Below, one piece after another: positions 43,141 to 61,377 of a DNA stretch of 64,000 nt. The stretch is from an uncultured Haloferula sp. (lineage in GTDB: Bacteria > Verrucomicrobiota > Verrucomicrobiia > Verrucomicrobiales > Akkermansiaceae). The notes under the pieces were generated by a model. That model saw nothing but the letters and a program-made list of their open reading frames with translations. It did no database searches and was not told the origin of the DNA. The stretch is taken from positions 192,001 to 256,000 of the forward strand of contig CBFGTS010000003.1 in the NCBI GenBank assembly GCA_965652295.1. Reading direction: 5' to 3'. The first letter of the stretch is position 1; the number at the start of each line of letters is the position of its first letter. The translations under genes were made by a program, and so were the position numbers.

Positions 43141-43986
43141 TTACTCGGCGTTCCGTCCCACTTGGATCAGCGCGACGAAATTCCCACCACCGGTGAGAGG
43201 ATCGGAGGGTTGATGGGCCTCGAAGCGGTCGTTGTCGGTCGGCGACTCGGCGCGGAAGCCGTCGATGGCAATGAAGTCGCCCTCGTTGACGAGGAGAGTT
43301 CCTTTCACCTCCGACCGGCGGAACACGGGCATGTCGATCCGGTTCTCGAAAAGCACCACCTCACGCGGGAAACCCAGAAAACCCTTTTCATGACGTGTGA
43401 TCGGATCGCCGTAGTTGACGAATCCTACAAAGGCGGTGCGGGCGAGAGCGAGGTCGACCACCACCTTTCCTTTCTCCGCCGAGCGGCCCTTGCAGGTCAG
43501 GATGGGACCGAGCACGCGTTCCTCGAATTGGCATGGGGTGGACGGATGGATGACTTCGAGCCGACCCTCCGCATCCGTCCGGGTTTCCGCAGGAAGATAT
43601 TCGGAAGGATACACGAACTCCCTTATGAGCTCGATGTGCGAGGTGTCGCCTGAATCGGAGACGACCGTCACTCCGCCGTCCATGATGGGCTCGAACCCTC
43701 TCCGCCGGGAGAGCGATTTGGCCAAACGGCTTCCCTCCTCCGCCGAATAGACGCCCGAGATCCTGGCCGTGTCGTGTCTTTTCCCGAAGTGGAATCCATC
43801 CGGTGCCCGGAAGTAGTAGGCCGTCAATTTGATCGCCGGCTCCCCTGCCCGTGCGACCTGATGTCTGACATGGGCCCCGGAGGCCACGCCGGTATCCGAC
43901 ACCGAGCACGAAGCCAAGGCCCCGGCAATCAGCAGCCCGACGAGAGATAGAAGGCGGCCTGCTGCCGTCGAGAACCCACTGTGCAT
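43141..43986 (-). CDS. Lipoprotein with secretin-like C-terminal domain
   Basis: Lipobox LASC; IELIREFVYPSEY...TPCQFEER...FVGFVNYG...PVF resembles Verrucomicrobial secretin-family segments. Confidence 0.6.
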   Translation of the reverse strand: MHSGFSTAAGRLLSLVGLLIAGALASCSVSDTGVASGAHVRHQVARAGEPAIKLTAYYFRAPDGFHFGKRHDTARISGVYSAEEGSRLAKSLSRRRGFEPIMDGGVTVVSDSGDTSHIELIREFVYPSEYLPAETRTDAEGRLEVIHPSTPCQFEERVLGPILTCKGRSAEKGKVVVDLALARTAFVGFVNYGDPITRHEKGFLGFPREVVLFENRIDMPVFRRSEVKGTLLVNEGDFIAIDGFRAESPTDNDRFEAHQPSDPLTGGGNFVALIQVGRNAE

Positions 43987-44061: not shown

Positions 44062-46914
44062 TCACTCCTCCCCGAGCGCCTCGAAGTGCGCCACCGCCGC
44101 CTTCGCCAAGCCCGCCGGATCGTAGCCGCCTTCCAGCACCGAGATCACCCGACCGTCCGCCCAGCGGTTCGCGATCCTCACCACCGCCCTGGTCAGCTCC
44201 GCGAAGTCCTCCGGCACGAGCTTGAAGCCCCCCAGCGGATCGCTCGCCAGTGCATCGAAGCCGGCGGAGACCAGCACCAACGCCGGCCGAAACTTCTCCA
44301 TCGCCGGCACCAGGCGGTCCTCGATTACCGATAAAACCGCTTTCCCATCCGACCCGTGCTTCAGCGGCACATTCATCGTCGTCCCGATCCCGCGGCCCGC
44401 CCCGGTCTCGTCCGCGCCACCGCTGAAGGGAAAAATCCCATCCTCGTGCACCGAGAAATAAAACACATCCGGGTCCGCGAAGAACAGGTCCTGCGTGCCG
44501 TTGCCGTGGTGCACGTCCCAATCGACGATCAACACCCGCGGCACCCCGAACTCCTCCTGCGCGTGCCGCGCCATCAGCGCGATGTGATTGTAGATGCAGA
44601 AGCCCATCCCGCGGTCGGCCGTCGCGTGATGACCCGGCGGCCGCACCGCCACGAAAGCCCGCTTCACCCGCCCGTCCATCCCCGCCGCCACCGCTTCCAG
44701 ACCCGCGCCGGTCGCCAGCATCGCCACCTCCTCGCTTTCCGGACCGATCGCCGTGTCGCCCGTGCGCAGGCGATCGGCGAGGCTTTCAACATCGATGTGC
44801 ACCAGGTCCAGATAGTGCGCCGCATGGCACCGCAGCAGCTCCGCCCGCGTCGCCTTCCGGCCCGGCAAAGCCACGGCATCCATCCGTTTCGCCGACTCCG
44901 CCAGCGCTTCGCCCAGCACCCGGTAACGCTGCGGATTCTCCACCTCGCCCGGTCCGCCATCGTGACGCAGGCAGGTTTCCGACCAATACCAACCCACCGC
45001 CACCCCGACCGGCTTCGTCAAAACGGAGGGCCTTCCGGGTTTCACCAACCTCCGCGCCACCATCGCCACCGGAATCCGGAATTCCAGCTCTCCGTCCTCC
45101 TGCCGCGCCCGACCGCCGAACTTCTCGAACAACCGGATCATCGGCAGATTCGTTGGTAGCACCGAGGCCCAGAACTCCGCGATCCCCCGCTTCTTCGCCA
45201 CCCGCGCCAGCTCGCCGAACAACTCACCCGCCATGCCCATCCGCCGCGTTTCGTCATGCACCACGAAGGCGACCTCCGCACTGCCGTTGTCGTCGCGATA
45301 AAACCGCCCCACCGCCCGCAGCACTGGCTCGCGACCCAGACCGATTTCCTCGAATATCCCCAGCGCCAGATCCCGCGACTGATCCACCCCCACCAGCTTG
45401 AAAGCCGAGTCCGCCGGCATCGACTCCCGCAGGTAGCCATACCGGTTGCGCACCGTTTCCTCACTGTGACTGTAGAAGAACTCCTGCAACCGCCGGATGT
45501 CCGAGGCGTGCAGCGGACGTAGGAAAAACGAGCGATCCCCGCCAAGTCGCAGCCGCCGAAATTCGACCCCCGACTTCACATCGCCCGGAGCCAGGCTCGT
45601 CGGTGCCACCGACACGAACTTCGGAATCCACCCCCGCTCGTGCGCCCCGCGCATCAGCTCCTCGCGGAACTTCGGGTCGGCGATCTGGATCATCTCCAGC
45701 GCCCGCTCGCGCATGCTCTTCCCGCGCAAATTGGCCACCCCGTGCTCGGTAATTACATAATGCACGTCCGTCCGACCGGTCGAAACCACCGTCCCCTCCG
45801 GCGGACTCGCCACGATCCGCGACTTGCTCCCGTCCTCGCTGGTCGAGCGCAGCACATGCACCGGCCGACCGCCCGCACTGCCCGCCGCGCCGCGCAGGAA
45901 ATCGAGCTGCGCCCCGATCCCGCCGTGAAACCGGTGCCCCGCCGCGTCCCGCATCACCTGGCCCGTGATGTCAATCTGCCGCGCCCCGTTCACCGCCACC
46001 ATCTTGTGGTTCATCGCAATGATCCCCGGGTCGTTCACCCAGTCGCTCGTCCGGAACTCCAGCTCCCCGCACTCCGCCACGAACTCATAGAGCCGCTTCG
46101 ATCCCAGCGCGTGGCTCACCACCGCCTTGCCGGTCATGAAATGTTTCCGCGAGTGATCCACCGCGCCGCAGCGGATCAGCTCCATCAGCTCGTCGCACAG
46201 CAACCCACTGTGGATTCCCAGATGCCGGTGGCCCCGCAGGGCGGAAACCGCCGCCCGCGCCGTGGTGCCCAGCCCCACCTGCAGCGTCGAGCCATCATCC
46301 ACCAGCTCCGCCAGATACGCGCCGATCTTTTCCCGCACCGGGTCCCGTCCCACCTTCGGCAACGTCGCCAGCGGCTCCTCCTTCTCGATGAACCAATCGA
46401 TCTTCGACGCGGGCAGGGTCCCATCGCCCCTGGTGAAGGGAATCCGCGGATTCACCTGCGCCACCACCACCCGCGCCGCCTCCACCGCCGCCTTCACCAC
46501 GTCCACGCTGATCCCCAGCGACACCTGCCCGTCCGCATCCGGCGGGCTCACGCTGATCAGCGCCACATCCACCGGCATCACCGTCGAGCTGAAGAACCGC
46601 GGCACCTCCGACATCGAGGCCGGCGTGTAGTCCGCCCGCCCTTCCAGCACCGCATCGCCCAGTTCCGGAGTCAGGAAAAACGAATTCGTCCGCAGGTTCT
46701 CCGCGAACCTTGGGTCCACCCACGGCACCTTCCCCAGCGTATGGATGTGCACCAGCTCCACATCCCGCATCCCCTCCGCCGCCTTCAGGAACCGCCGCAT
46801 CAGCTCCCGCGGCACCGAAGCCCCTCCGCACAAAAACACCCGCGACCCCGGACGCACGATCCGCCCCCACGCCTCGTTGCTTCTTTCCAGCTCCTTCACG
46901 CTCCCATTCTCCAC
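44062..46914 (-). CDS. Fusion: acetyl-CoA hydrolase/CoA-transferase-like + GNAT acetyltransferase + histone deacetylase family domain
   Basis: VSPPDADG..SLG, QIDITGQ, GIGAQLDF, YVITEHG; LRPL...AEVAFVVHD..RRMGMAG...N.PMI.LFEK; RPPGHHA, DWDVHHGNGTQ, SAGFDA, LEGGY. Confidence 0.92.
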   Translation of the reverse strand: MENGSVKELERSNEAWGRIVRPGSRVFLCGGASVPRELMRRFLKAAEGMRDVELVHIHTLGKVPWVDPRFAENLRTNSFFLTPELGDAVLEGRADYTPASMSEVPRFFSSTVMPVDVALISVSPPDADGQVSLGISVDVVKAAVEAARVVVAQVNPRIPFTRGDGTLPASKIDWFIEKEEPLATLPKVGRDPVREKIGAYLAELVDDGSTLQVGLGTTARAAVSALRGHRHLGIHSGLLCDELMELIRCGAVDHSRKHFMTGKAVVSHALGSKRLYEFVAECGELEFRTSDWVNDPGIIAMNHKMVAVNGARQIDITGQVMRDAAGHRFHGGIGAQLDFLRGAAGSAGGRPVHVLRSTSEDGSKSRIVASPPEGTVVSTGRTDVHYVITEHGVANLRGKSMRERALEMIQIADPKFREELMRGAHERGWIPKFVSVAPTSLAPGDVKSGVEFRRLRLGGDRSFFLRPLHASDIRRLQEFFYSHSEETVRNRYGYLRESMPADSAFKLVGVDQSRDLALGIFEEIGLGREPVLRAVGRFYRDDNGSAEVAFVVHDETRRMGMAGELFGELARVAKKRGIAEFWASVLPTNLPMIRLFEKFGGRARQEDGELEFRIPVAMVARRLVKPGRPSVLTKPVGVAVGWYWSETCLRHDGGPGEVENPQRYRVLGEALAESAKRMDAVALPGRKATRAELLRCHAAHYLDLVHIDVESLADRLRTGDTAIGPESEEVAMLATGAGLEAVAAGMDGRVKRAFVAVRPPGHHATADRGMGFCIYNHIALMARHAQEEFGVPRVLIVDWDVHHGNGTQDLFFADPDVFYFSVHEDGIFPFSGGADETGAGRGIGTTMNVPLKHGSDGKAVLSVIEDRLVPAMEKFRPALVLVSAGFDALASDPLGGFKLVPEDFAELTRAVVRIANRWADGRVISVLEGGYDPAGLAKAAVAHFEALGEE

Positions 46915-47341: not shown

Positions 47342-48145
47342 TCATGAAACCGGTCGGGCTTTCCACTTCCAAAACGCGAATCCCAGCAGCAGCGCCAGCA
47401 ACGCTCCCGCCACCGGAACCCACGGAGTTTCCTCCGGCTCATTCGCTTGATCGACAGCGGGCCGTTCTGACCGCTCGTCCACCGGCCGGCGCGACGTTCT
47501 CGGTGTTGCCAGCACTTCTCCTTGGAAATCGTAACGCTTTTTCGACCCCTTGAAGGAGTAGGTCTGCTTGCCCTCCCTTACCTGGTCCCTCCATTCGAGC
47601 CAAAGATCCATGCGCGTCGAGCTAGGCACCGGAGGATCTTCCAACATGCCCGCCAAGGTGCTGGCGGACGCCTGACCCAAGGTGCCTTCAAGATCGGGAA
47701 GACGTCGTTTATCGTTGTCGCCCAGAAACCCTGCGAGGATATCCACCACTTCCGGAGTGTGAAAATAGCCCAACACAGTAAAGACCTTTTGTCGCTCTGT
47801 TAAGTAATGGTTATAGGCAGGTCCGTTTTCAAGTCCTTCTTCTTTGAGCCTTGAAACATAATCCCGGAAGAAGCCCGGGAATTCAGGTCGTTCGGCAAGG
47901 GCTGTCTCAAGCGCGGGGACTACTTGGGTCTCCATGGCTTTGGAAAACGTCGGGAGTCGGTATTTCCTGTAAAGCATGGCAAGTTCAGGCATGGCTTCCT
48001 CGGCCGGCATTTGGCGGAGTTCATGAATACGCTCCAAAACCGAGGTCTCCCATGCTTGCAACTCTGCCGGGTTGTCAGGAAGACGGGCTGATATTTTTGT
48101 CGAAATCGTGACGATTCCGACCAGCAAAATCATGAAGCATTTCAT
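47342..48145 (-). CDS. Exported helical protein with C-terminal membrane anchor
   Basis: Signal peptide, C-terminal PWVPVAGALLALLLGFAFWKWK; ATG abuts the upstream stop. Confidence 0.75.
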   Translation of the reverse strand: MKCFMILLVGIVTISTKISARLPDNPAELQAWETSVLERIHELRQMPAEEAMPELAMLYRKYRLPTFSKAMETQVVPALETALAERPEFPGFFRDYVSRLKEEGLENGPAYNHYLTERQKVFTVLGYFHTPEVVDILAGFLGDNDKRRLPDLEGTLGQASASTLAGMLEDPPVPSSTRMDLWLEWRDQVREGKQTYSFKGSKKRYDFQGEVLATPRTSRRPVDERSERPAVDQANEPEETPWVPVAGALLALLLGFAFWKWKARPVS

Positions 48146-51100
48146 TTAGTCGATAAACTCGGTTAACCACTCATCGATCTTGTCCCACTCCCCCTTCACC
48201 AGCAGCCGTTTTCTCAATAGACCGGTGTGGAACGGGTTCGAATACATCAACCGATCGGGATGATGCGTGCCTGCCAAGGGTGCAGGGCCTCCACCGTCGT
48301 TCGGGTGTCCTCCCCCCATCATGACGTGCCCGATTTCGTGCGCCAACGTGTTGAGAATACCGCTTTTGCTCCTTCCCGTGTTGCCCGGCAGCCAGACGGT
48401 GCGCGAAGCCGGATGAGCGAGACCCACATACCCTCCGAAGCCATGGAACTCGCTGTTGAAATCCCGCCAGACGGTGATCTGTTCCGCGCCACCCACGAAA
48501 TAAACGTTGATGTCCGCAGCGGCGTCCACTCCCGCAGAGGTAAGGATCTTACTTTGTTCGGTTCCAATGTCGCTACCATTCGAATCCAATGAACCATTCC
48601 CTGAGGCAGGTCCTGACCCGGGCTCTTGTTGGAAATCCTCTCCCGTTCCGTAGTCCCAATACACCGGGGTCGGCTGGACATCACCGGAGGTTTCGACGTC
48701 CCAATAGGCGTTGACCTGTTTGCCGTAGATGTCGTCGAGGAATTCCTCGATTTCGGCTTTGGTGAAGGCGTGTTCAGGATTCACCCGGCCGTCCACGCCG
48801 TTGTTCTGCGCGACGTGCCAGAAGTGGAGTTTCACCTCACGCCGCTTCATGACCTTCACTCCGATCGGATGGGAAACGCTGTCGGCATCTTCGAAACCGA
48901 GATCCACATCCACCTCGGACGAGGACGTCGCAGCCGAGGACCAACTTACGGGAGTAGTCCCGAGATCAAGGGTAGCAGGAGTAATGGCGACGTTCCCGGC
49001 GCTCAAGGTCAGGGCCCGGTCGGGCGTCACGGGAGCGTGGACGACCGAGGCATTCGCCTCCGAACCTCCTCCGGGAACCATCACCCAGATTTTGCCCCCT
49101 TGTCGTTCGTCCTCCTTCAATGCGGTCGCCGAGACAGGATCGACTCCGGTGGCAAATTCGTCGTCCTCCACCCGAACGGGAACGGCGCTGAGCAATCGGG
49201 TGAAATCCGCCGGAGCCTCGTGGGAGGAGAGACCCGCGACAAGGGAACCCGAACCGGCCATTCCCAAAAGGCGGGCCTGCTTCCATTCCCCGTCCAATCC
49301 GGGAGCGATCTCGGGGAGGTAATACAGCCGCCCATTCCGCCAGACCAATCCCTCGCGCATGACGCCGGTTCCGTCCTTGGACAGATCGATGAGATCTTTC
49401 ATTTTCGAGATCGGAGACCAATCCGACGAAGACTTCCTGGCTCTCGGAGTCACCTTTTCACCGAGGAGCACCAAGCCTCCATTACCGTTTTCTCCACCCA
49501 CTTCAACCATCTTCCGAAATTCATTCTTACCCAGCGAGATCGCCGCGCCTCCCGCTCCGGTAAGGAAGCCTTCCTCGTTCTGCCAGTCGTACCCCCAGAG
49601 AGCCCCGGACTCGTGGGCAAACACCGCATACGGCGGGGCCGGGGTATAGACAGGTTCGGACCCTTCCGGTTCAAGATCCCAAACCACCCGCTGGTCCTGC
49701 TGCCAGCTCACTCCGGAACCCGAGCCACTGGAGACCCCCTTGTAGTTTTGAACCACGATTTTCCCGTCGTTCGAAAGGGTCGAACCAAACCTCAAAAAAC
49801 CGTGTGCCATGTCATACGGTGCACGGGCCGCATCGTTGCCTGATCTCATTTCGGAGGCACCGTCGCCGGGTTTCTTCCACCAAACGAGGCGTCTGCTCTC
49901 CCGGCTTTCATTGAGATCATCGTCGAAGGTCTGACTCCCCACGACCCAGCCCTGATCATTCATGGCGTAGAGCAGGGCATCTTCGCCATAGTCCACGATC
50001 TCGCCGCGATCCCAAACCTTGCGGCTGAACATCACCCTGCCCACATCGTCCACCCCCGCCGGGCCCTCCGGCCATAAGCCTGGTGTGGTGAGAGAGGAGA
50101 TCGGCAACTCAAACACCGCATACACCGAGTGGGGAGTCTTTTTCCAATTGATGAGCGAGTCGTTTGCAACCGCGTCTTCACTATCCGGCACCGAGTCTCC
50201 ATCCGAGTCGAGCTGCTGTCCATCCGGTACACCATCGCCGTCGTTGTCACTTTGAAAGGGAGAGGCCAAACCCGAGTCCGGGTGCTCGGGATCCAACATC
50301 ACGGCAAATTCGGCCCAATCGGGACTGCCATCGGAATCGGAGTCGAGACTCCAATCCGCCGAAATCCGCACGAACCCCCTGCCATCCGGCGAGGCGGGAG
50401 CCGGGGGAGGTGCCGCACGAGCAACGGCCACGGAATTGGCGACGGCCGCGTTCATTTCGGGCAGGCGGGCCCGGAACTCATTCACCATCGCGGCATCCTC
50501 TTCGGCAAGCGGAGACTCTTCCTGCGGAGGGATCTGCGGCGTGGGAAGATGGAGGACGAAAAAGTAGTAGTCGCCGTAGGGGTGGGCGAACCATGGCATC
50601 TCCGACCAGTCCTGATGCAGGGATTCAGGAATCCGGAACACCACCGATCCACCTGAATCGAGCGAACGCCAGGAAAGGATGGTGCCCGTTTCCGGAGAGG
50701 CCGCCGGGGCGACCATCAGGCTTACGTGTTGAGAGGGAACCTCCACCGCTTCACCCCCGGGCGCTTCCGGGTCCGGCGGCGGAGCCGGAGCCCTTTCCAC
50801 CAACGGTACGACGTGCTCGTGCCCCAGCCCATAGATATTCCCGATCTCCTCCCAATCCTGCAGATCGCGGCTGAACTCGACCCGATAACCCACACCAGCC
50901 GTCGATCGAAACACCCAAGAAGTCTGCACCGATCCATCAAGCGCGGACACATCCTCCATCCAACGGGGCGGCAGCGGGTCGTCCTGCTGCGCGGCTGCAG
51001 AACCAAGAAGAGCCAACGACACCATGCCTGCTGCCACGAAAACCCTGGGAGATTTCAGCCTTCGATCAGTCACGACGGGATTCGATGACTTTTGCCACAT

Positions 51101-51181
51101 ATAACGCAAGTCAGAAATGACTACGGTATGCTCTGCGAGGGTTTCAAGCTGCTGGAATGCCATCGCGCAAAGGCCGTCCAC
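48146..51181 (-). CDS. Large secreted protein with C-terminal metzincin-like metallopeptidase motif (true start probably 51100 or 51025)
   Basis: Signal-like LALLGSAAA|Q, DxDxDG repeats, TLAHEIGHVMMGGGH...RLM. Confidence 0.75.
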   Translation of the reverse strand: MDGLCAMAFQQLETLAEHTVVISDLRYMWQKSSNPVVTDRRLKSPRVFVAAGMVSLALLGSAAAQQDDPLPPRWMEDVSALDGSVQTSWVFRSTAGVGYRVEFSRDLQDWEEIGNIYGLGHEHVVPLVERAPAPPPDPEAPGGEAVEVPSQHVSLMVAPAASPETGTILSWRSLDSGGSVVFRIPESLHQDWSEMPWFAHPYGDYYFFVLHLPTPQIPPQEESPLAEEDAAMVNEFRARLPEMNAAVANSVAVARAAPPPAPASPDGRGFVRISADWSLDSDSDGSPDWAEFAVMLDPEHPDSGLASPFQSDNDGDGVPDGQQLDSDGDSVPDSEDAVANDSLINWKKTPHSVYAVFELPISSLTTPGLWPEGPAGVDDVGRVMFSRKVWDRGEIVDYGEDALLYAMNDQGWVVGSQTFDDDLNESRESRRLVWWKKPGDGASEMRSGNDAARAPYDMAHGFLRFGSTLSNDGKIVVQNYKGVSSGSGSGVSWQQDQRVVWDLEPEGSEPVYTPAPPYAVFAHESGALWGYDWQNEEGFLTGAGGAAISLGKNEFRKMVEVGGENGNGGLVLLGEKVTPRARKSSSDWSPISKMKDLIDLSKDGTGVMREGLVWRNGRLYYLPEIAPGLDGEWKQARLLGMAGSGSLVAGLSSHEAPADFTRLLSAVPVRVEDDEFATGVDPVSATALKEDERQGGKIWVMVPGGGSEANASVVHAPVTPDRALTLSAGNVAITPATLDLGTTPVSWSSAATSSSEVDVDLGFEDADSVSHPIGVKVMKRREVKLHFWHVAQNNGVDGRVNPEHAFTKAEIEEFLDDIYGKQVNAYWDVETSGDVQPTPVYWDYGTGEDFQQEPGSGPASGNGSLDSNGSDIGTEQSKILTSAGVDAAADINVYFVGGAEQITVWRDFNSEFHGFGGYVGLAHPASRTVWLPGNTGRSKSGILNTLAHEIGHVMMGGGHPNDGGGPAPLAGTHHPDRLMYSNPFHTGLLRKRLLVKGEWDKIDEWLTEFID

Positions 51182-51438
51182 TCACATCTCCCGGTTCACG
51201 CCCGGAAGACCCGGACGAGCTATTTGTCCATCAGGTAAAAGCAATTTTGCGAGAAGAACGGCTCAAACGGGGCATCAGTTTCAGAAAATTGGAGAGCCTT
51301 TGTGGAATCTCGCACGGGTATCTCGCGCTTGCCGAGCGTTCCGATGTGCAGCCAACGCTTCTTGTGATCCGACGATGGACCAACGGTCTTGGAATCAGTT
51401 TGGAAGACGTCATCCGACGGGCCCACCAGGATTCTTGA
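51157..51438 (+). CDS. XRE family HTH regulator
   Basis: LREERLKRGISFRKLESLCGISHGYLALAER...PTL. Confidence 0.8.
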   Translation: MPSRKGRPLTSPGSRPEDPDELFVHQVKAILREERLKRGISFRKLESLCGISHGYLALAERSDVQPTLLVIRRWTNGLGISLEDVIRRAHQDS

Positions 51439-51460
51439 GATCGACTCGTTCCGCTCGAAG

Positions 51461-51577
51461 GAAACGCCGGAACCGAACCTGGTGGCGGGGATGAAGTGGT
51501 TGATGGGAGCTTACACTCAGAGCTGGAACCGCAGGCGCAAGCGGCGTGGGCACGTGTTCCAAGGGCGCTACAAGGGG
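51461..51577 (+). pseudogene. Internal fragment of a Y1/REP-associated tyrosine transposase
   Basis: ETPEPNLVAGMKWL...YTQSWNRRRKRRGHVFQGRYK; HUH and catalytic Tyr segments absent. Confidence 0.8.
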
Positions 51578-51678
51578 TGGTGGTCAATGGTGAGGGGAAC
51601 GGTGAGCCTTTCCGGACGCTTTCGGCGTTGGACAGAAAACGCAGCTTGAAAACCGCACGGATAGCGCACGCTCCCCCT

Positions 51679-51921
51679 GTGAAAACGATCACAACCACCA
51701 CCGCACGGTCCGATCTGTATCGCGTCACCGATTCGGCTCTTTCTGACCACGAGCCCGTGCAGATCACCGGCAAGCGCGGGAACGCCGTTTTGGTTGCGGA
51801 GTCCGATTGGAGGGCGATCCAGGAGACCCTGCACCTTGTGAGCATTCCGGGTATGCGGGATTCCATCCTCAAAGGGATGAAGCAACCGGTTGAGGAATGC
51901 AGCCGGGAGATCGACCTGTGA
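51679..51921 (+). CDS. Phd/YefM antitoxin
   Basis: ARSDLYRV...HEPVQITGKRGNAVLV...IQETLHLVSIPGM. Confidence 0.92.
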   Translation: MKTITTTTARSDLYRVTDSALSDHEPVQITGKRGNAVLVAESDWRAIQETLHLVSIPGMRDSILKGMKQPVEECSREIDL

Positions 51922-52181
51922 GCTACGATCTCGCCTATACCCGGCAGGCGAGAAAGGACGCGAAGAAGCTGAAGGGATCGCCATTCGCAGCCAAGGCGAG
52001 GGAACTGCTGGATTTGATCGCCAACGACCCCTTTGCCGGTCCTCCTCCATTTGAGGCCTTGGTCGGTGACCTGAAGGGAGCCTATTCGCGCCGCCTCGAC
52101 ATTCAGCGTCGCTTTGTTTATCAGGTCTTGGAGGAGGAGCAGATCGTGAAGGTGCTGCGACTCTCGACGCACTACGACTGA
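51918..52181 (+). CDS. Txe/YoeB toxin
   Basis: PPFEALVGDLKGAYSRRLDIQRRFVY...THYD; GTGA overlap with the antitoxin. Confidence 0.92.
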   Translation: MSYDLAYTRQARKDAKKLKGSPFAAKARELLDLIANDPFAGPPPFEALVGDLKGAYSRRLDIQRRFVYQVLEEEQIVKVLRLSTHYD

Positions 52182-52447
52182 AACCCAAGAGCCGATTCTG
52201 AACCCGCCTCACCGGGAGGGTAACCCGTCACGACGATACCATCCTCAACCCAATCACGCCTCACGAAGCCAAGTTCACGATTCAGATTCCATGAGCACAA
52301 TGAGAGCGCTCGCAATCAGCATGACCAGAAGCGCCCAACTACCTGACCTCCTTCGATTCCGCTGATTCATATGATCAGGACACTCAGCCCTCAGGCAACG
52401 CGCGGCTGCCATCAGGCGGTGGTGTGCGATGACGTTCCACCGGAACC

Positions 52448-52870
52448 ATGAAGATGAATCCTGCCATCGTTGGAACATGGATAATCGAATCGCCTGAACG
52501 ACAGGGTGAGCATGAGTATATTCATATTTGCAGCGATGGACGAATCGTGCACTTCACGTTTGCTCAACCGGAAGGTCACCGCGTCTGGTCGGTGAAGCTC
52601 TGGGCGACCCCGATGGGAGGCAATCATTACCAGATTCGTCCGAAACCGGTCCACGAAGGCTGGCCGGTCGAGATCCTCCCGTCCGAAAATGGGCTTCGAA
52701 CTGCGCACAACGAGAAGTCGCATTCGCTGCTTCCTGCTTTAGATGCCTGTTTGCCCAACTGGTTCAACAGCCGGCTTGAGAAGGCGCTTGCCGAGATGGC
52801 TGAGCTGGAAGAACAGGCACAAAAAGCCCAGCAAGCGGGAGATTGCGATGCTCCACAGCAGCCTCGTTGA
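52448..52870 (+). CDS. Hypothetical protein, cassette-like
   Basis: 140-aa lower-GC ORF (IVGTW...DGR). Confidence 0.6.
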   Translation: MKMNPAIVGTWIIESPERQGEHEYIHICSDGRIVHFTFAQPEGHRVWSVKLWATPMGGNHYQIRPKPVHEGWPVEILPSENGLRTAHNEKSHSLLPALDACLPNWFNSRLEKALAEMAELEEQAQKAQQAGDCDAPQQPR

Positions 52871-53125
52871 AGCCCCGTTTTTTGTGGTTCGCTGCTCTCA
52901 TGGGGATCGACGCCGCCAGGTGCCTGCGCCACCAAAGGAACCGATGATCCGGACTTTATCGTCCCATCCATCCCGGAAATCCTATTCATCCTTGATCCCA
53001 GATCCCCGGCAGCCGTCCCCTCACAAAACCCTCTGCGGCTCGCCGCTGTGCGGAAATTGCCGAAGTGTTCGCGCTTCCGGCATTGCCGTTGACCCGACGC
53101 CGAACTGCGGTTGACTCGTCCTGTT

Positions 53126-54316
53126 ATGGGCGTTCTTGTCATCAACTGCGGCTCTTCCTCGGTCAAATTCGCGCTTTTCGCCGCCAGCGACCCGCAACCG
53201 GCCGCCAGCGGCATTGTCGAGCGTCTCAACAGCCCCGGTGCCCGCGGCATCATGCATCTGGCCGGCGACGGATTCATCGAGCTGTCCGTCGAGGCACCCG
53301 GCGATCACACCGCCGCGCTGCGTGCCGCGCTCCAGGCCCTCCGCGCCCAGCCCGGGCTCGAGCCCGTCACCGCCATCGGTCACCGCGTCGTCCACGGCGG
53401 CCAGCGCTTCTCAAAACCGGCGCTGATCGATGCCGAAGTCCTCGCCGCCGTCCGCCTGCTCGCCCCGCTCGCTCCTTCCCACAACATCCCCAACGCCCTG
53501 GGCATCGAGGCCGCCTCCGCGCTCTTCCCCGGCATCCCGCAGGTCGCCGTGTTCGACACCGCCTTCCACCAGAGCATCGCGCCGAAGGTCTATCGCTACG
53601 CCATCCCCGAAGAACTCTACCGCGAGCACGACGTCCGCAGGTACGGCTTCCATGGCACCAGCCACGGATGGGTCGCCGCGCAGGCGGTGAAGGCGCTCGG
53701 CCTGCCCGACCACCACCGACTGCTCATCGCTCATCTCGGCAACGGTTGCAGCGCCACTGCGGTGCTGGACGGCCGGTCGGTCGACACCACCATGGGCCTG
53801 ACCCCGCTCGAGGGCCTCGTCATGGGCACCCGCAGTGGGAACGTGGACCCGAACCTCCACGCCTTCCTCCACCGGCAGACGGGCATGTCGCTTCAGGAAA
53901 TCACCGACCTCCTCAACCTGCGCTCGGGCCTCACCGGGCTGGCCGGCATTTCCGACATGCGCCAGCTCGCCGAAGCCGAGGCCGCGGGCGATCCCGCCGC
54001 CCACCTGGCGGTCGAGGTCTTCACCTTCCGGCTCGCCCGCGAACTCGCCGGCCTCTGCGTGGCGCTAGGCGGTCCGCCTGACGCCCTCGTCTTCACCGGC
54101 GGCATCGGAGAAAACTCGGCCATGATCCGCCGGGCGACCGTCGATCAACTCGGCGTGCTCAGCCTGAAGCTCGACGAGCCCGCCAACCTCGAGCACGGCC
54201 GCGCCACCGCCGGGCGGATCAGCCCGCATGGTACGAAACCTGCCGTACTCGTGATCCCGACCAACGAGGAATTCGCCATCGCCACCGCCACCCGCGAACT
54301 CACCGGCCAAGCCTGA
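53126..54316 (+). CDS. ackA: Acetate kinase
   Basis: INCGSSSVK, GHRVVHGG, FDTAFH, YGFHGTSH, FTGGIGEN, TNEE. Confidence 0.97.
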   Translation: MGVLVINCGSSSVKFALFAASDPQPAASGIVERLNSPGARGIMHLAGDGFIELSVEAPGDHTAALRAALQALRAQPGLEPVTAIGHRVVHGGQRFSKPALIDAEVLAAVRLLAPLAPSHNIPNALGIEAASALFPGIPQVAVFDTAFHQSIAPKVYRYAIPEELYREHDVRRYGFHGTSHGWVAAQAVKALGLPDHHRLLIAHLGNGCSATAVLDGRSVDTTMGLTPLEGLVMGTRSGNVDPNLHAFLHRQTGMSLQEITDLLNLRSGLTGLAGISDMRQLAEAEAAGDPAAHLAVEVFTFRLARELAGLCVALGGPPDALVFTGGIGENSAMIRRATVDQLGVLSLKLDEPANLEHGRATAGRISPHGTKPAVLVIPTNEEFAIATATRELTGQA

Positions 54317-54324
54317 TCTCCGTC

Positions 54325-56442
54325 ATGCCCCAGCACACTTTTCTCACCGTTCCGGTCGGCCGCAGCGTCGGCCTGACCTCTGTCAGCATCGGCCTCGTCC
54401 GCGCGCTCGATCGGCTGGGGGTGGACGTCGGATTTTTCAAGGCCCTCGGCCAGCCGCATCCCGGCGAGGATTTCGACCGCTCCTCCGCCTACCTCGAGGC
54501 CACCACCACGCTCACCCCTCCCCCGCCGATCCCCCACTCCACGGTCCGTCATGCCGTCAGCAAGGACGATATCGATGACCTCATGGAGGAAGTCGTCAGC
54601 CGCTACGAGCCGCTTCCACGGCAGCACGATGTCATCATCGTCGAGGGCCTCGTCAACACCCACGACCTGCCCAGCGCCACCAAGCTCAACGCCGCCCTGG
54701 CCCGGGCCCTCAACGCCGAAGTCGTGCTCGTGACCCGCCCGGAAGAGGGCGATACGGTCGAGGCCATCGCCGACCAGCTCGACCACGTCCTGCGCCAGCT
54801 GCCCGACCATTTCCGCCGCATCAAGCCGGCCGTGATGCTCAACCACGTCGATGTCGATGCCCTCGCCGCCGACCTCGGCACGACGACCGATGCGCCCAGC
54901 CTTCTCACCGCGCTTTCCGCGCAGCTCTCGGCGAAACAGGGCGACTACGAAATCATCGGCATCATCCCCGACAACCCCGACCTCGCCGCGCCCCGGATGT
55001 GTGACGTCGTCGATCTGCTCGGCGGTTCCGTCCTCATGGCCGGCGACATGGCCGGCCGCCGCATCAAACGGATTTCCCTCTGCGCCCGCACCGTGCCGAA
55101 CATGCTCGGTGCGCTCCGTTCCGGAAATCTCGTCGTCACCCCGTCCGACCGCTCCGACATCATCCTCGCCGCCGCGCACGCCGCCACACGCTCGATCCAG
55201 CTGGCCGGGTTGATCCTCACCTCCGACCTCGAGCCCGACCCGCAGGTCATGCGTTTCTGCCAGGACGCCTTTGAAGCCGACGGCGGCACTCCGGTCATCC
55301 GTGTCCCCGATTCCTCCTTCGACATCGCGCTCCGTCTCCACGATCTCAACCCCGAGCTGCCCGTCGAAGACGTCGAGCGCATCGGCCAGGTGATGGACAC
55401 TGTCGCCCGCTCGACCGACGCCAACTGGCTGCGCGAGCGTTGCGCCACCTATGTCGCCAAACGTCTTTCGCCGCCCGCCTTCCGCCACCGCATCGCCAAA
55501 ACCGCACGCGCCAATCTCAAACGGATCGTTCTACCCGAAGGCGACGAACCCCGCACCGTCCAGGCCGCCGTCCGCTGCGCCGAGCGCGGCATCGCCCGGT
55601 GCATCCTGGTGGGCGATCCCGAACAGATCCGGGAAGTCGCCCGCGTCAACAACCTCACGCTCCCGCCCCTGCTTGAGATCCTCGACCCCGAGCCCCAGCG
55701 CGCCCGTTTCCTGGAGCCGCTGCTGGAGCTGCGGAAAAGGAAGGGACTCACCGAACTCGCCGCCCAGGAGGCGCTGCGCGACAACGTCGTGTTCGCCACC
55801 ATGATGCTCGCGATGGACGAGGTCGACGGTCTCGTTTCCGGTGCCGTTCACAGCACGGCCGACACCATCCGGCCCGCGCTCCAGCTCATCCGCACCGCTC
55901 CCGACGCCCGCGCCGTTTCCTCCGTCTTCTTCATGTGTCTGCCCGATCAGGTCCTCGTGTATGGCGATTGCGCCGTGAACCCCGACCCCGACGCCGAGAC
56001 GCTGGCCGACATCGCCATTCAGAGCGCCAACTCCGCGAAGGCCTTCGGCATCGATCCGATCGTCGCCATGATCAGCTACTCCACCCTCGGCTCGGGTGCC
56101 GGCAGCGAGGTGGAAAAAGTCCGCCTGGCCACCGAGATCGCCCGCCAACGCGCGCCCGAGCTGATCATCGACGGCCCGCTGCAATACGACGCCGCCACCA
56201 TCGCCGAGGTCGCCGCGACCAAAGCCCCCGACAGCAAGGTCGCCGGCCGCGCCAACGTCTTTATTTTCCCCGATCTCAACACCGGCAACACCACCTACAA
56301 AGCCGTCCAGCGCTCGGCCAACGTCATCTCCATGGGCCCCATGCTCCAGGGCCTGCGCAAGCCGGTCAACGACCTCAGCCGCGGTGCCTCCATCGATGAC
56401 ATCCTCTACACCATCGCCCTCACGGCGGTGCAGGCGGGGTGA
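54325..56442 (+). CDS. pta: Phosphate acetyltransferase (long form with DRTGG domain)
   Basis: VGLTSVS, LSPPAFR, IVLPEG, DCAVNPDP, DGPLQYDAA, PVNDLSRG. Confidence 0.97.
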   Translation: MPQHTFLTVPVGRSVGLTSVSIGLVRALDRLGVDVGFFKALGQPHPGEDFDRSSAYLEATTTLTPPPPIPHSTVRHAVSKDDIDDLMEEVVSRYEPLPRQHDVIIVEGLVNTHDLPSATKLNAALARALNAEVVLVTRPEEGDTVEAIADQLDHVLRQLPDHFRRIKPAVMLNHVDVDALAADLGTTTDAPSLLTALSAQLSAKQGDYEIIGIIPDNPDLAAPRMCDVVDLLGGSVLMAGDMAGRRIKRISLCARTVPNMLGALRSGNLVVTPSDRSDIILAAAHAATRSIQLAGLILTSDLEPDPQVMRFCQDAFEADGGTPVIRVPDSSFDIALRLHDLNPELPVEDVERIGQVMDTVARSTDANWLRERCATYVAKRLSPPAFRHRIAKTARANLKRIVLPEGDEPRTVQAAVRCAERGIARCILVGDPEQIREVARVNNLTLPPLLEILDPEPQRARFLEPLLELRKRKGLTELAAQEALRDNVVFATMMLAMDEVDGLVSGAVHSTADTIRPALQLIRTAPDARAVSSVFFMCLPDQVLVYGDCAVNPDPDAETLADIAIQSANSAKAFGIDPIVAMISYSTLGSGAGSEVEKVRLATEIARQRAPELIIDGPLQYDAATIAEVAATKAPDSKVAGRANVFIFPDLNTGNTTYKAVQRSANVISMGPMLQGLRKPVNDLSRGASIDDILYTIALTAVQAG

Positions 56443-56463
56443 ATGGAGAGCCGATCAACCTGC

Positions 56464-56751
56464 CAGTGGCATGACCGTCCCGGTCATGAAAGGGGGAGCT
56501 TTTCGAACTCACCAAGCAGGCGACCGGATGAATCTTGTTCGGGGTTTCCCTTTCATGACCATTCCGATCAGAAGAAAGGAAGCTCCTCTCACCCGCCAAG
56601 CAGGCGACCGAGTCGCCTGCTCGTTGGGAGTTTCTGTCTTTCATGAGGCTCTCATCAGAAAAAAGGAGACTCTTCGGACCCGTTGAGCAAGCGACGGGGG
56701 GAACGCTCGCCCGAAGCACCCCCGCTCATGACCGGGACGGTCATGCCACTG
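56464..56751. mobile_element. Non-autonomous REP-bounded element (REPIN/BIME-like), 288 bp
   Basis: Perfect 26-bp terminal inverted repeats CAGTGGCATGACCGTCCCGGTCATGA, identical to the left end of the metH insert. Confidence 0.85.
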
Positions 56752-56776
56752 ATAGGCGACAAAAGCCTCAGAACCC

Positions 56777-56841: not shown

Positions 56842-61377
<4,536 letters not shown>

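Follow-up and report, generated by a model that had tools for sequence, protein, structure and literature searches.

How an acetylase and a deacetylase that oppose each other avoid a futile cycle has only just been answered, for Bacillus and with a separate sensor (as described in PMC13121692). The same question is raised by a gene in a stretch of 64,000 nucleotides (nt) from an uncultured Haloferula sp. (contig CBFGTS010000003.1, positions 192,001 to 256,000; the whole stretch is called the window here). Its product would place an acetylation writer, an eraser and a candidate sensor in one purifiable chain, which makes the futile-cycle question testable in one tube. The 950-amino-acid (aa) protein joins a domain with the fold of a family I coenzyme A (CoA) transferase, a GNAT acetyltransferase and a Zn-dependent deacylase. 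An earlier note on this DNA had assigned a CoA-transferase, a GNAT and a Zn-dependent HDAC domain, and these assignments are borne out by Pfam, fold matches and motifs. The reading somewhat favoured here, drawn from sequence and from analogy to known systems, is a Pat-type writer that is gated by acyl-CoA and carries its eraser on the same chain, with acetyl-CoA synthetase (Acs), at the acetate node, as its target.

Conservation, Fusion and Splitting of the Triple Protein

The frame opens with a GTG start codon and contains zero internal stops. Pfam places AcetylCoA_hydro at aa 45-180, AcetylCoA_hyd_C at 271-422, GNAT at 464-606 and Hist_deacetyl at 658-947. A domain-architecture search, which the earlier note had proposed, finds the triple fusion conserved. 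Homologues were taken as the best 120 of 767 clusters found, and 74 of them are triples (query included, 45-100% identity), with two-domain CoA-transferase-GNAT proteins making up the other 46. Their source names include Haloferula, Rubritalea, Coraliomargarita, Akkermansiaceae and Chthoniobacterales, and by these names the triple occurs in named cultured species (of the first three). Phylum-wide the module is patchy, with matches at E 1e-100, in any form, in 18 of 301 genomes. Within the family (151 genomes), an unbroken triple is present in 14 genomes, a triple interrupted at its join by one in-frame TAG in 1, and the two-domain form in 17.

In 13 of the 17 two-domain genomes the orthologous deacylase is the next gene; the two frames overlap by ATGA at 10 of these junctions, and at the other 3 the ATG lies 2 nt past the stop. 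On a tree of 42 rows the fused and split states switch 5 times, one switch being a probable frameshift artefact (L178, G432, a triple with a frameshift inside the GNAT), and a single fused clade is rejected (approximately unbiased test, p-AU 2.5e-61). Since many relatives encode the deacylase as an adjacent gene and about five state changes fall on the tree, one chain is not required. Conservation extends to the partnership of writer and eraser; their covalent connection is labile. Because it is fusion and splitting of the deacylase that recur, the first domain is tied to the writer, not to the eraser; it stays with the GNAT in all but L136. That locus (L136:2265-3860, G102) holds a 532-aa frame of GNAT and deacylase, with no CoA-transferase-like domain within 8 kilobases (kb) upstream.

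The repeated switching, the rejection of a single fused clade, the poorly conserved linkers of 25-49 aa between the domains and the one in-frame TAG that interrupts a triple at its join (L125, G017) are what would be expected of an accidental join, in which a stop codon between two operon genes was lost, or an assembly went wrong, without a meaning of its own. This explanation deserves almost no weight in view of the 74 triple clusters reaching down to 45% identity, the 14 family genomes, a second, independent triple family (see below) and a contig from another study, X3, which crosses the linker between GNAT and deacylase with 14 substitutions and no gap. Of the listed strain differences, 24 were read into the gene, and none of these creates a stop. 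The earlier note had named as damaging to its proposal that relatives might encode the deacylase separately and that the join might be a sequencing error or a strain-specific stop loss. Many relatives do carry it separately; error and strain-specific stop loss are both rejected by the triple clusters and the X3 contig. An assembly error is thus excluded, and it remains true that the covalent linkage is dispensable.

The CoA-Transferase-like Domain

In an alignment with five solved 4-hydroxybutyrate CoA-transferases, the motif GIHSG (aa 233-237) stands opposite GIHSE or GIHTE, and Gly237 takes the position of the Glu. The motif and its codon, GGG, are as the earlier note had placed them, and the exchange of Glu for Gly that it singled out proves invariant, with Gly in 120 of 120 homologue clusters. 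Family I CoA-transferases require the active-site Glu as nucleophile, according to the sections consulted of PMC3180442 and PMC9813914. Of the features of family I (Cat1), the domain thus has the two-domain alpha/beta CoA-transferase fold and lacks the Glu nucleophile. Its model superimposes on 2oas with a Z-score of 52.2 and a root-mean-square deviation of 1.7 over 423 residues, and its identity to 4-hydroxybutyrate CoA-transferases (AbfT 3gk7, AtoA 2oas) is 33-38%.

Judged from the alignments, the domain is not decaying and is under strong selection. It is the best conserved of the three, with a mean pairwise identity among the 74 triples of 0.59 (GNAT 0.57, deacylase 0.54), and it has retained 56 of the 63 positions at which Glu-bearing relatives are conserved, the comparison groups having been picked for having Glu. 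The pocket motifs Gln212, Gly216, Asn309, Gly332 and Gly334 are invariant or nearly so in this clade. Six near-invariant residues have been gained: Trp65, His268, Trp292, Arg312, Arg322 and His327.

Loss of the Glu extends beyond this clade. Among representatives at 50% identity, whose clusters are not independent, those with a GNAT (n = 75) carry Glu in 40 cases and a different residue in 34, with a gap in the remaining 1; those without a GNAT hit (n = 41) have Glu in 35. Repeated loss of Glu, by this sequence comparison, appears to go with fusion to a GNAT. The best 120 of 438 short relatives have Glu in 116 and Gly in 4, and these 4 resemble fragments or frameshifts of fusions. Four stand-alone CoA-transferases of 420-436 aa (P0226, P0232, P0247 and P0266) also have Gly at the catalytic position, without the other marks of the clade; P0226 was placed outside the Gly clade in the single tree holding such a row.

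The domain is likely catalytically dead, and only likely, because loss of the Glu rules out the ping-pong mechanism of family I alone and MdcA works without an acidic residue. MdcA performs acyl transfer on a similar fold with an Asn and a backbone oxyanion hole and no acidic active-site residue, as reported in the part of PMC5534430 seen. On this precedent the domain could, like MdcA and CitF, form a mixed anhydride directly and act as a CoA-transferase or thioesterase without the Glu, making or removing the acyl-CoA that serves the GNAT. Gly237 would then free room for a carboxylate held by the new arginines. Asn309, present in 120 of 120, the gained Arg312, Arg322, His268 and His327, and a replacement that in this clade is always Gly and never random would all suit such an enzyme. 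It is nonetheless quite improbable, as no stand-alone member of the Gly clade occurs among the best 120 of 438 short relatives, the wider fused family replaces the Glu with at least 12 different residues, a pattern resembling loss of catalysis, and Gly335, conserved elsewhere, is Ala or Ser here. The absent Glu, the retained Asn309 and the gained arginines may or may not amount to a family II-like site (MdcA/CitF); sequence and fold matches go to family I.

The Predicted Writer and Eraser Domains

The GNAT is, by sequence profile and by model, closest to the Pat-type protein lysine acetyltransferases. The top 9 matches of its profile in the PDB are all Pat enzymes (PatZ, SlPatA, MtPat/MsPat, Sulfolobus Pat), as are the top 10 Foldseek matches of its model, the best being the SlPatA GNAT bound to Acs (4u5y, template modelling (TM) score 0.86). 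Motif A of Pat-type GNATs (R/QxxGxG/A) is present. Arg491 and Glu547 correspond to R754 and E809 of PatZ, and the catalytic residues are invariant, with Arg491, Glu547, Arg557 and Gly560 in 120 of 120 clusters. Arg occupies position 489 in 112 of 120 members of this clade, 115 of 115 of the second triple family and 9 of 115 Glu-type fusions. The NCBIfam Pat model matches 42 of 42 GNAT domains, all under its cut-off. A search with this GNAT as query found no other like it in the genome.

One pocket residue departs from PatZ. The PatZ residue F756 is needed for activity, and its Ala mutant loses much of it, according to the portion of bioRxiv 10.1101/2024.11.12.623305 consulted. The equivalent residue is Gly493 in 120 of 120 homologue clusters, an invariant His in the second triple family, and Phe in 57 of 115 Glu-type fusions.

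In the deacylase, the motifs RPPGHH, GFC, DxH, D and EGGY are intact, with His762-His763, Asp800, His802, Asp887 and Tyr931 in place. They match the catalytic list for classical deacylases, namely a double His, GFC, Asp-His-Asp zinc ligands and the Tyr of GGY (Graf et al., PMC11532494, in part). The earlier note had described intact GHH, DxH, D and GGY motifs in this one protein, and the same holds for 74 of 74 triples (Tyr931 in 73 of 74, with one gap). The model matches Kdac1, HDAH and HDAC6 (Z ~44). Together the writer and the deacylase very probably form a reversible protein acylation pair. The same genome also encodes a second deacylase, one sirtuin and an Acs with the motif PKTRSGK. A Rubritalea homologue is contained in the supplement of PMC11532494, where it is seen only as a deacylase domain, residues 666-956.

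The acceptor or the acyl group may be other than proposed. The modified protein could, for instance, be Pta, AckA or an ADP-forming synthetase; the acyl chain could be longer or carry a charge; or the acceptor could be a small amine, with polyamines among the candidates. The exchanged F756 equivalent allows for this, as do bacterial deacylases that act on polyamines and lysine alike (PMC11532494, sections seen) and the recurring neighbours of the clade, which are ackA-pta and not acs. The profile and fold searches, in contrast, rank Pat enzymes far above small-molecule GNATs, and acs stands beside related modules in several phyla. The polyamine gatekeeper motif of HDAC10 and ApaH, PEG/PIS, is absent as well, whereas RPP and EGGY, which mark robust acetyl-preferring deacylases, are present (both motif rules from the part of PMC11532494 seen). 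With these points on either side, a different acceptor or acyl group is distinctly unlikely. Membership among the polyamine deacetylases is rejected, as PLG replaces PEG/PIS and positions 894/895 are L/M/I/V followed by G/A, without Glu, in 74 of 74 triples.

A Second Triple Family

The earlier note had given one triple family and missed a second. Its representative P0130 (1013 aa) keeps the order of the three domains, with a class I-like deacylase (best PDB matches HDAC1/2 and HDLP). The best 120 of its 1475 hits all carry CoA-transferase and deacylase domains, a few of them partial, and come under source names of Deltaproteobacteria, Myxococcota, Aminicenantes, Planctomycetes and one Thermoplasmatota archaeon. 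In these 120 the catalytic site holds Asp in 108, Glu in 7 and another residue in 5, and the Gln, the GxG loop, the Asn and the GGxG motif of the pocket are all changed. Each triple family forms a group with 100% support, nested among different two-domain proteins (subsampled rows), and one origin for both is rejected (p-AU 3.1e-11; 38 rows, LG+G4). The split between class I and class II separates their deacylases. By these trees the three-part layout appears to have arisen separately twice, each time with another class of deacylase. Both fusions belong to lineages that lack the Glu; a sample of two events carries no statistical weight. The pair offers a natural comparison of the conversion of an enzyme to a sensor.

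The family was found in 8 of 251 genomes of the phylum of G152 and in none of the 301 genomes of the phylum of G154. A metagenome scan with P0130 returned 12 loci that match the first domain only, and no triple. The acs gene lies directly upstream in 3 of the 8 loci. In L195, L197 and L198 the class I triple gene comes after a run of panB, an unknown 425-aa gene and acs, and on its other side it meets a second CoA-transferase-GNAT gene in convergent orientation.

The second family bears on the function of the dead domain. If writer and eraser are read correctly and this domain serves only to oligomerise the protein and to shape the substrate site, the balance of the two activities would come from mass action of acetyl-CoA at the GNAT. 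The more eroded pocket of the second family agrees with such a scaffold. So do the homologous CoA-transferases, which are dimers or tetramers (PMC3180442, part consulted), and PatZ, whose N-terminal domain is required for oligomer and activity (bioRxiv 10.1101/2024.11.12.623305, part consulted). In the clade of the window, however, the invariant or near-invariant pocket motifs and the new polar residues exceed the needs of a scaffold, and this role alone is unlikely.

Genes of Acetate Metabolism

The genes beside the module and its relatives point, as far as gene order can tell, to acetate metabolism. The three closest relatives have ackA-pta immediately beside the triple gene and divergent from it. 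In the window a block at 47342-52870 separates them; it holds genes for two proteins that have no Pfam hits (267 and 1011 aa), an HTH_3 gene, the toxin-antitoxin pair YefM/YoeB (51568-52181) and an unknown frame of 140 aa. This block was probably inserted: its G+C content is lower, and the three closest relatives lack it at this place. Of 34 close loci, 4 have the ackA-pta pair next to the module. Where the deacylase is separated (3 loci), the pair is its neighbour at 2, and acs stands next to the writer and eraser genes at one. In another genus, 3 genomes have the deacylase beside pta-ackA, and in one of them it also follows acs.

The two-domain CoA-transferase-GNAT form is spread across many bacterial phyla and archaea. 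Among the best 80 of at least 598 loci of its Glu-type members, which come from many phyla and half of which are shortened by contig ends, a deacylase occurs in 26, an ADP-forming acyl-CoA synthetase in 40 and acs in 16. The AcsA model scored above cut-off in 3 of 3 tested acs neighbours. Open frames of more than 1000 codons (L049, L071) may join an ADP-forming synthetase to a CoA-transferase-GNAT. Other fusions of the family carry a 4Fe-4S region before CoA-transferase-GNAT or a receiver domain before the CoA-transferase (P0134, P0135, P0222).

Proposed Mechanism

From the architecture, the motifs, the lost Glu, the conservation, the gene linkage and the two origins on the trees, we infer ligand binding, allostery, enzyme activities and a target. 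The ligand of the N-terminal domain would be acetyl-CoA or a CoA ester related to it, and the domain would gate the GNAT. When acetyl-CoA is high, the occupied dead domain would switch the GNAT on, comparable to the dead synthetase domain of PatZ. In PatZ, acetyl-CoA is bound by the N-terminal domain, which stimulates the activity of the GNAT on Acs (bioRxiv 10.1101/2024.11.12.623305, in the part seen). When acetyl-CoA falls, the tethered or co-translated deacylase, which is NAD-independent, would strip the mark. Fusion likely sets a 1:1 ratio of writer to eraser and would not be needed for the chemistry. That the dead domain is a ligand sensor is reasonably probable, and Acs has slightly better than even chances of being a main target.

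Several observations count against this proposal. One relative, L136, manages with GNAT and deacylase in the absence of the first domain. Glu is kept in 40 of the 75 fused representatives and in all 80 cross-phylum loci, and because so many fused proteins retain it, a dead domain is not needed for fusion. The clade-invariant Trp65, His268, Arg312, Arg322 and His327 may indicate a ligand other than acetyl-CoA, and Gly493 in place of F756 may reflect an altered pocket for the acceptor or the acyl group. None of the 34 loci centred on genes of this clade has acs within ~8 kb, and the 3 loci of the second family with acs next to the triple gene have flanking genes in common and probably represent a single lineage. 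Acs is found in 133 of 150 family genomes, most of them without the module, so that its co-occurrence says little. The AlphaFold2 model of the full protein has a mean predicted local distance difference test (pLDDT) of 88 and a predicted TM score (pTM) of 0.63, at which the packing of the domains is not confidently predicted.

A bolder reading would make the protein a single-chain, metabolite-gated lysine acetylase and deacetylase, assembled on two independent occasions from a pseudo-CoA-transferase-GNAT and a deacylase of class II or class I. Both activities would be set reciprocally by the repurposed pocket in response to the acyl-CoA/CoA (or acetate) state, and the protein would define a new type of bacterial protein acetyltransferase. 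This is possible but doubtful. The earlier note had similarly proposed that a catalytically dead, CoA-ester-binding domain switches both opposing activities. The conserved, Glu-less domain stands, while its switching of both activities is without support; apart from the labile link to the eraser, the evidence speaks neither for nor against reciprocal control.

Relation to Known Systems

The gated writer with tethered eraser resembles PatZ in its sensor and writer half and AcuA/B/C in its list of parts, and it fails the defining tests of each. With Escherichia coli PatZ, Salmonella Pat and Streptomyces lividans PatA (types I and II) it shares a Pat-type GNAT fused to a dead acyl-CoA enzyme domain. 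That domain is an NDP-forming synthetase in those enzymes, whereas here it has a family I CoA-transferase fold, a Zn-deacylase follows in the same chain, and F756 is replaced by Gly. Membership in types I and II is rejected, the chain having no Pfam or NCBIfam match of the defining kind.

The type III Pat enzymes (the cAMP-dependent MtPat/MsPat, the ACT-GNAT PatB and the NADP+-binding MxKat) also place an N-terminal regulatory domain of ~300-400 aa before a Pat-type GNAT. Their ligand domains are given as cAMP-binding, ACT and NADP+-binding (PMC8556138, part seen). A CoA-transferase-like domain lies outside these three, so that membership in type III is rejected too, and type III has no fused eraser. 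The five-type GNAT scheme, in the parts of PMC8556138 and bioRxiv 10.1101/2024.11.12.623305 consulted, has no place for a CoA-transferase-like domain.

Bacillus AcuA/AcuB/AcuC, which acts on AcsA, has the same parts: a GNAT writer, a Zn-deacylase eraser and a metabolite sensor tied to acetate activation. These are three proteins, and the CBS-ACT sensor binds AMP and inhibits the eraser (PMC13121692, part seen). The 950-aa chain, by contrast, contains no CBS or ACT domain, its eraser is class II/HdaH-like where AcuC is class I-like, and acs is not adjacent in this clade. The 4-hydroxybutyrate CoA-transferases (AbfT 3gk7, AtoA 2oas) share the fold; the domain of the window differs from them in the absent Glu, in Ala at Gly335, in new invariant basic residues and in occurring only fused (best 120 of 438 short relatives).

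No paper describing the triple fusion appeared in full-text literature searches, which covered titles and abstract openings and left most subscription journals outside their reach; the three domains are already given in automated source names of homologues. New here are the count of invariance, the finding that fusion and fission recur, the test that points to two origins, and the remodelling of the pockets. GlnD, GlnE and AceK combine opposing activities in one chain under metabolite control, through uridylylation, adenylylation and phosphorylation. To our knowledge none of them uses lysine acetylation, and the triple protein, if the proposal is true, would be the acetylation counterpart of GlnD/GlnE.

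Features of the Window

Table 1. Positions in the window of the triple gene, its domains and the acetate genes.
Feature	Position	Strand	Remark
Triple-fusion gene (CoA-transferase-like + GNAT + Zn-deacylase)	44062..46914	-	950 aa, one unbroken frame
Family I (Cat1 / 4-hydroxybutyrate type) CoA-transferase fold without catalytic Glu	45619..46887	-	aa 10-432
Gly237 (codon GGG) at catalytic-Glu site	46204..46206	-	alignment to solved relatives
Pat-type GNAT domain	45094..45540	-	aa 459-607; Glu547 codon 45274-45276
Zn-dependent classical deacylase, class II / HdaH-like	44071..45003	-	aa 638-948
ackA (acetate/propionate kinase)	53111..54316	+	divergent; 6.2 kb off here
pta (phosphate acetyltransferase)	54325..56442	+	follows ackA

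Promoter and terminator scans gave results at chance level only. The gene downstream of the triple gene (43141-43986, minus strand) has a partial, below-cut-off match to the Amuc_1098 family and is absent beside the module in 34 related loci. Beyond pta, metH (56842-61377, plus strand; 1511 aa, frame open) carries an in-frame insert in its activation domain at 60190-60861. The insert has a Y1_Tnp (IS200/RAYT-like) hit at aa 1222-1290 and is flanked by inverted repeats of 31 nt with 97% identity (60190-60220 and 60831-60861). A related repeat pair lies between pta and metH, at 56459-56501 and 56714-56756.

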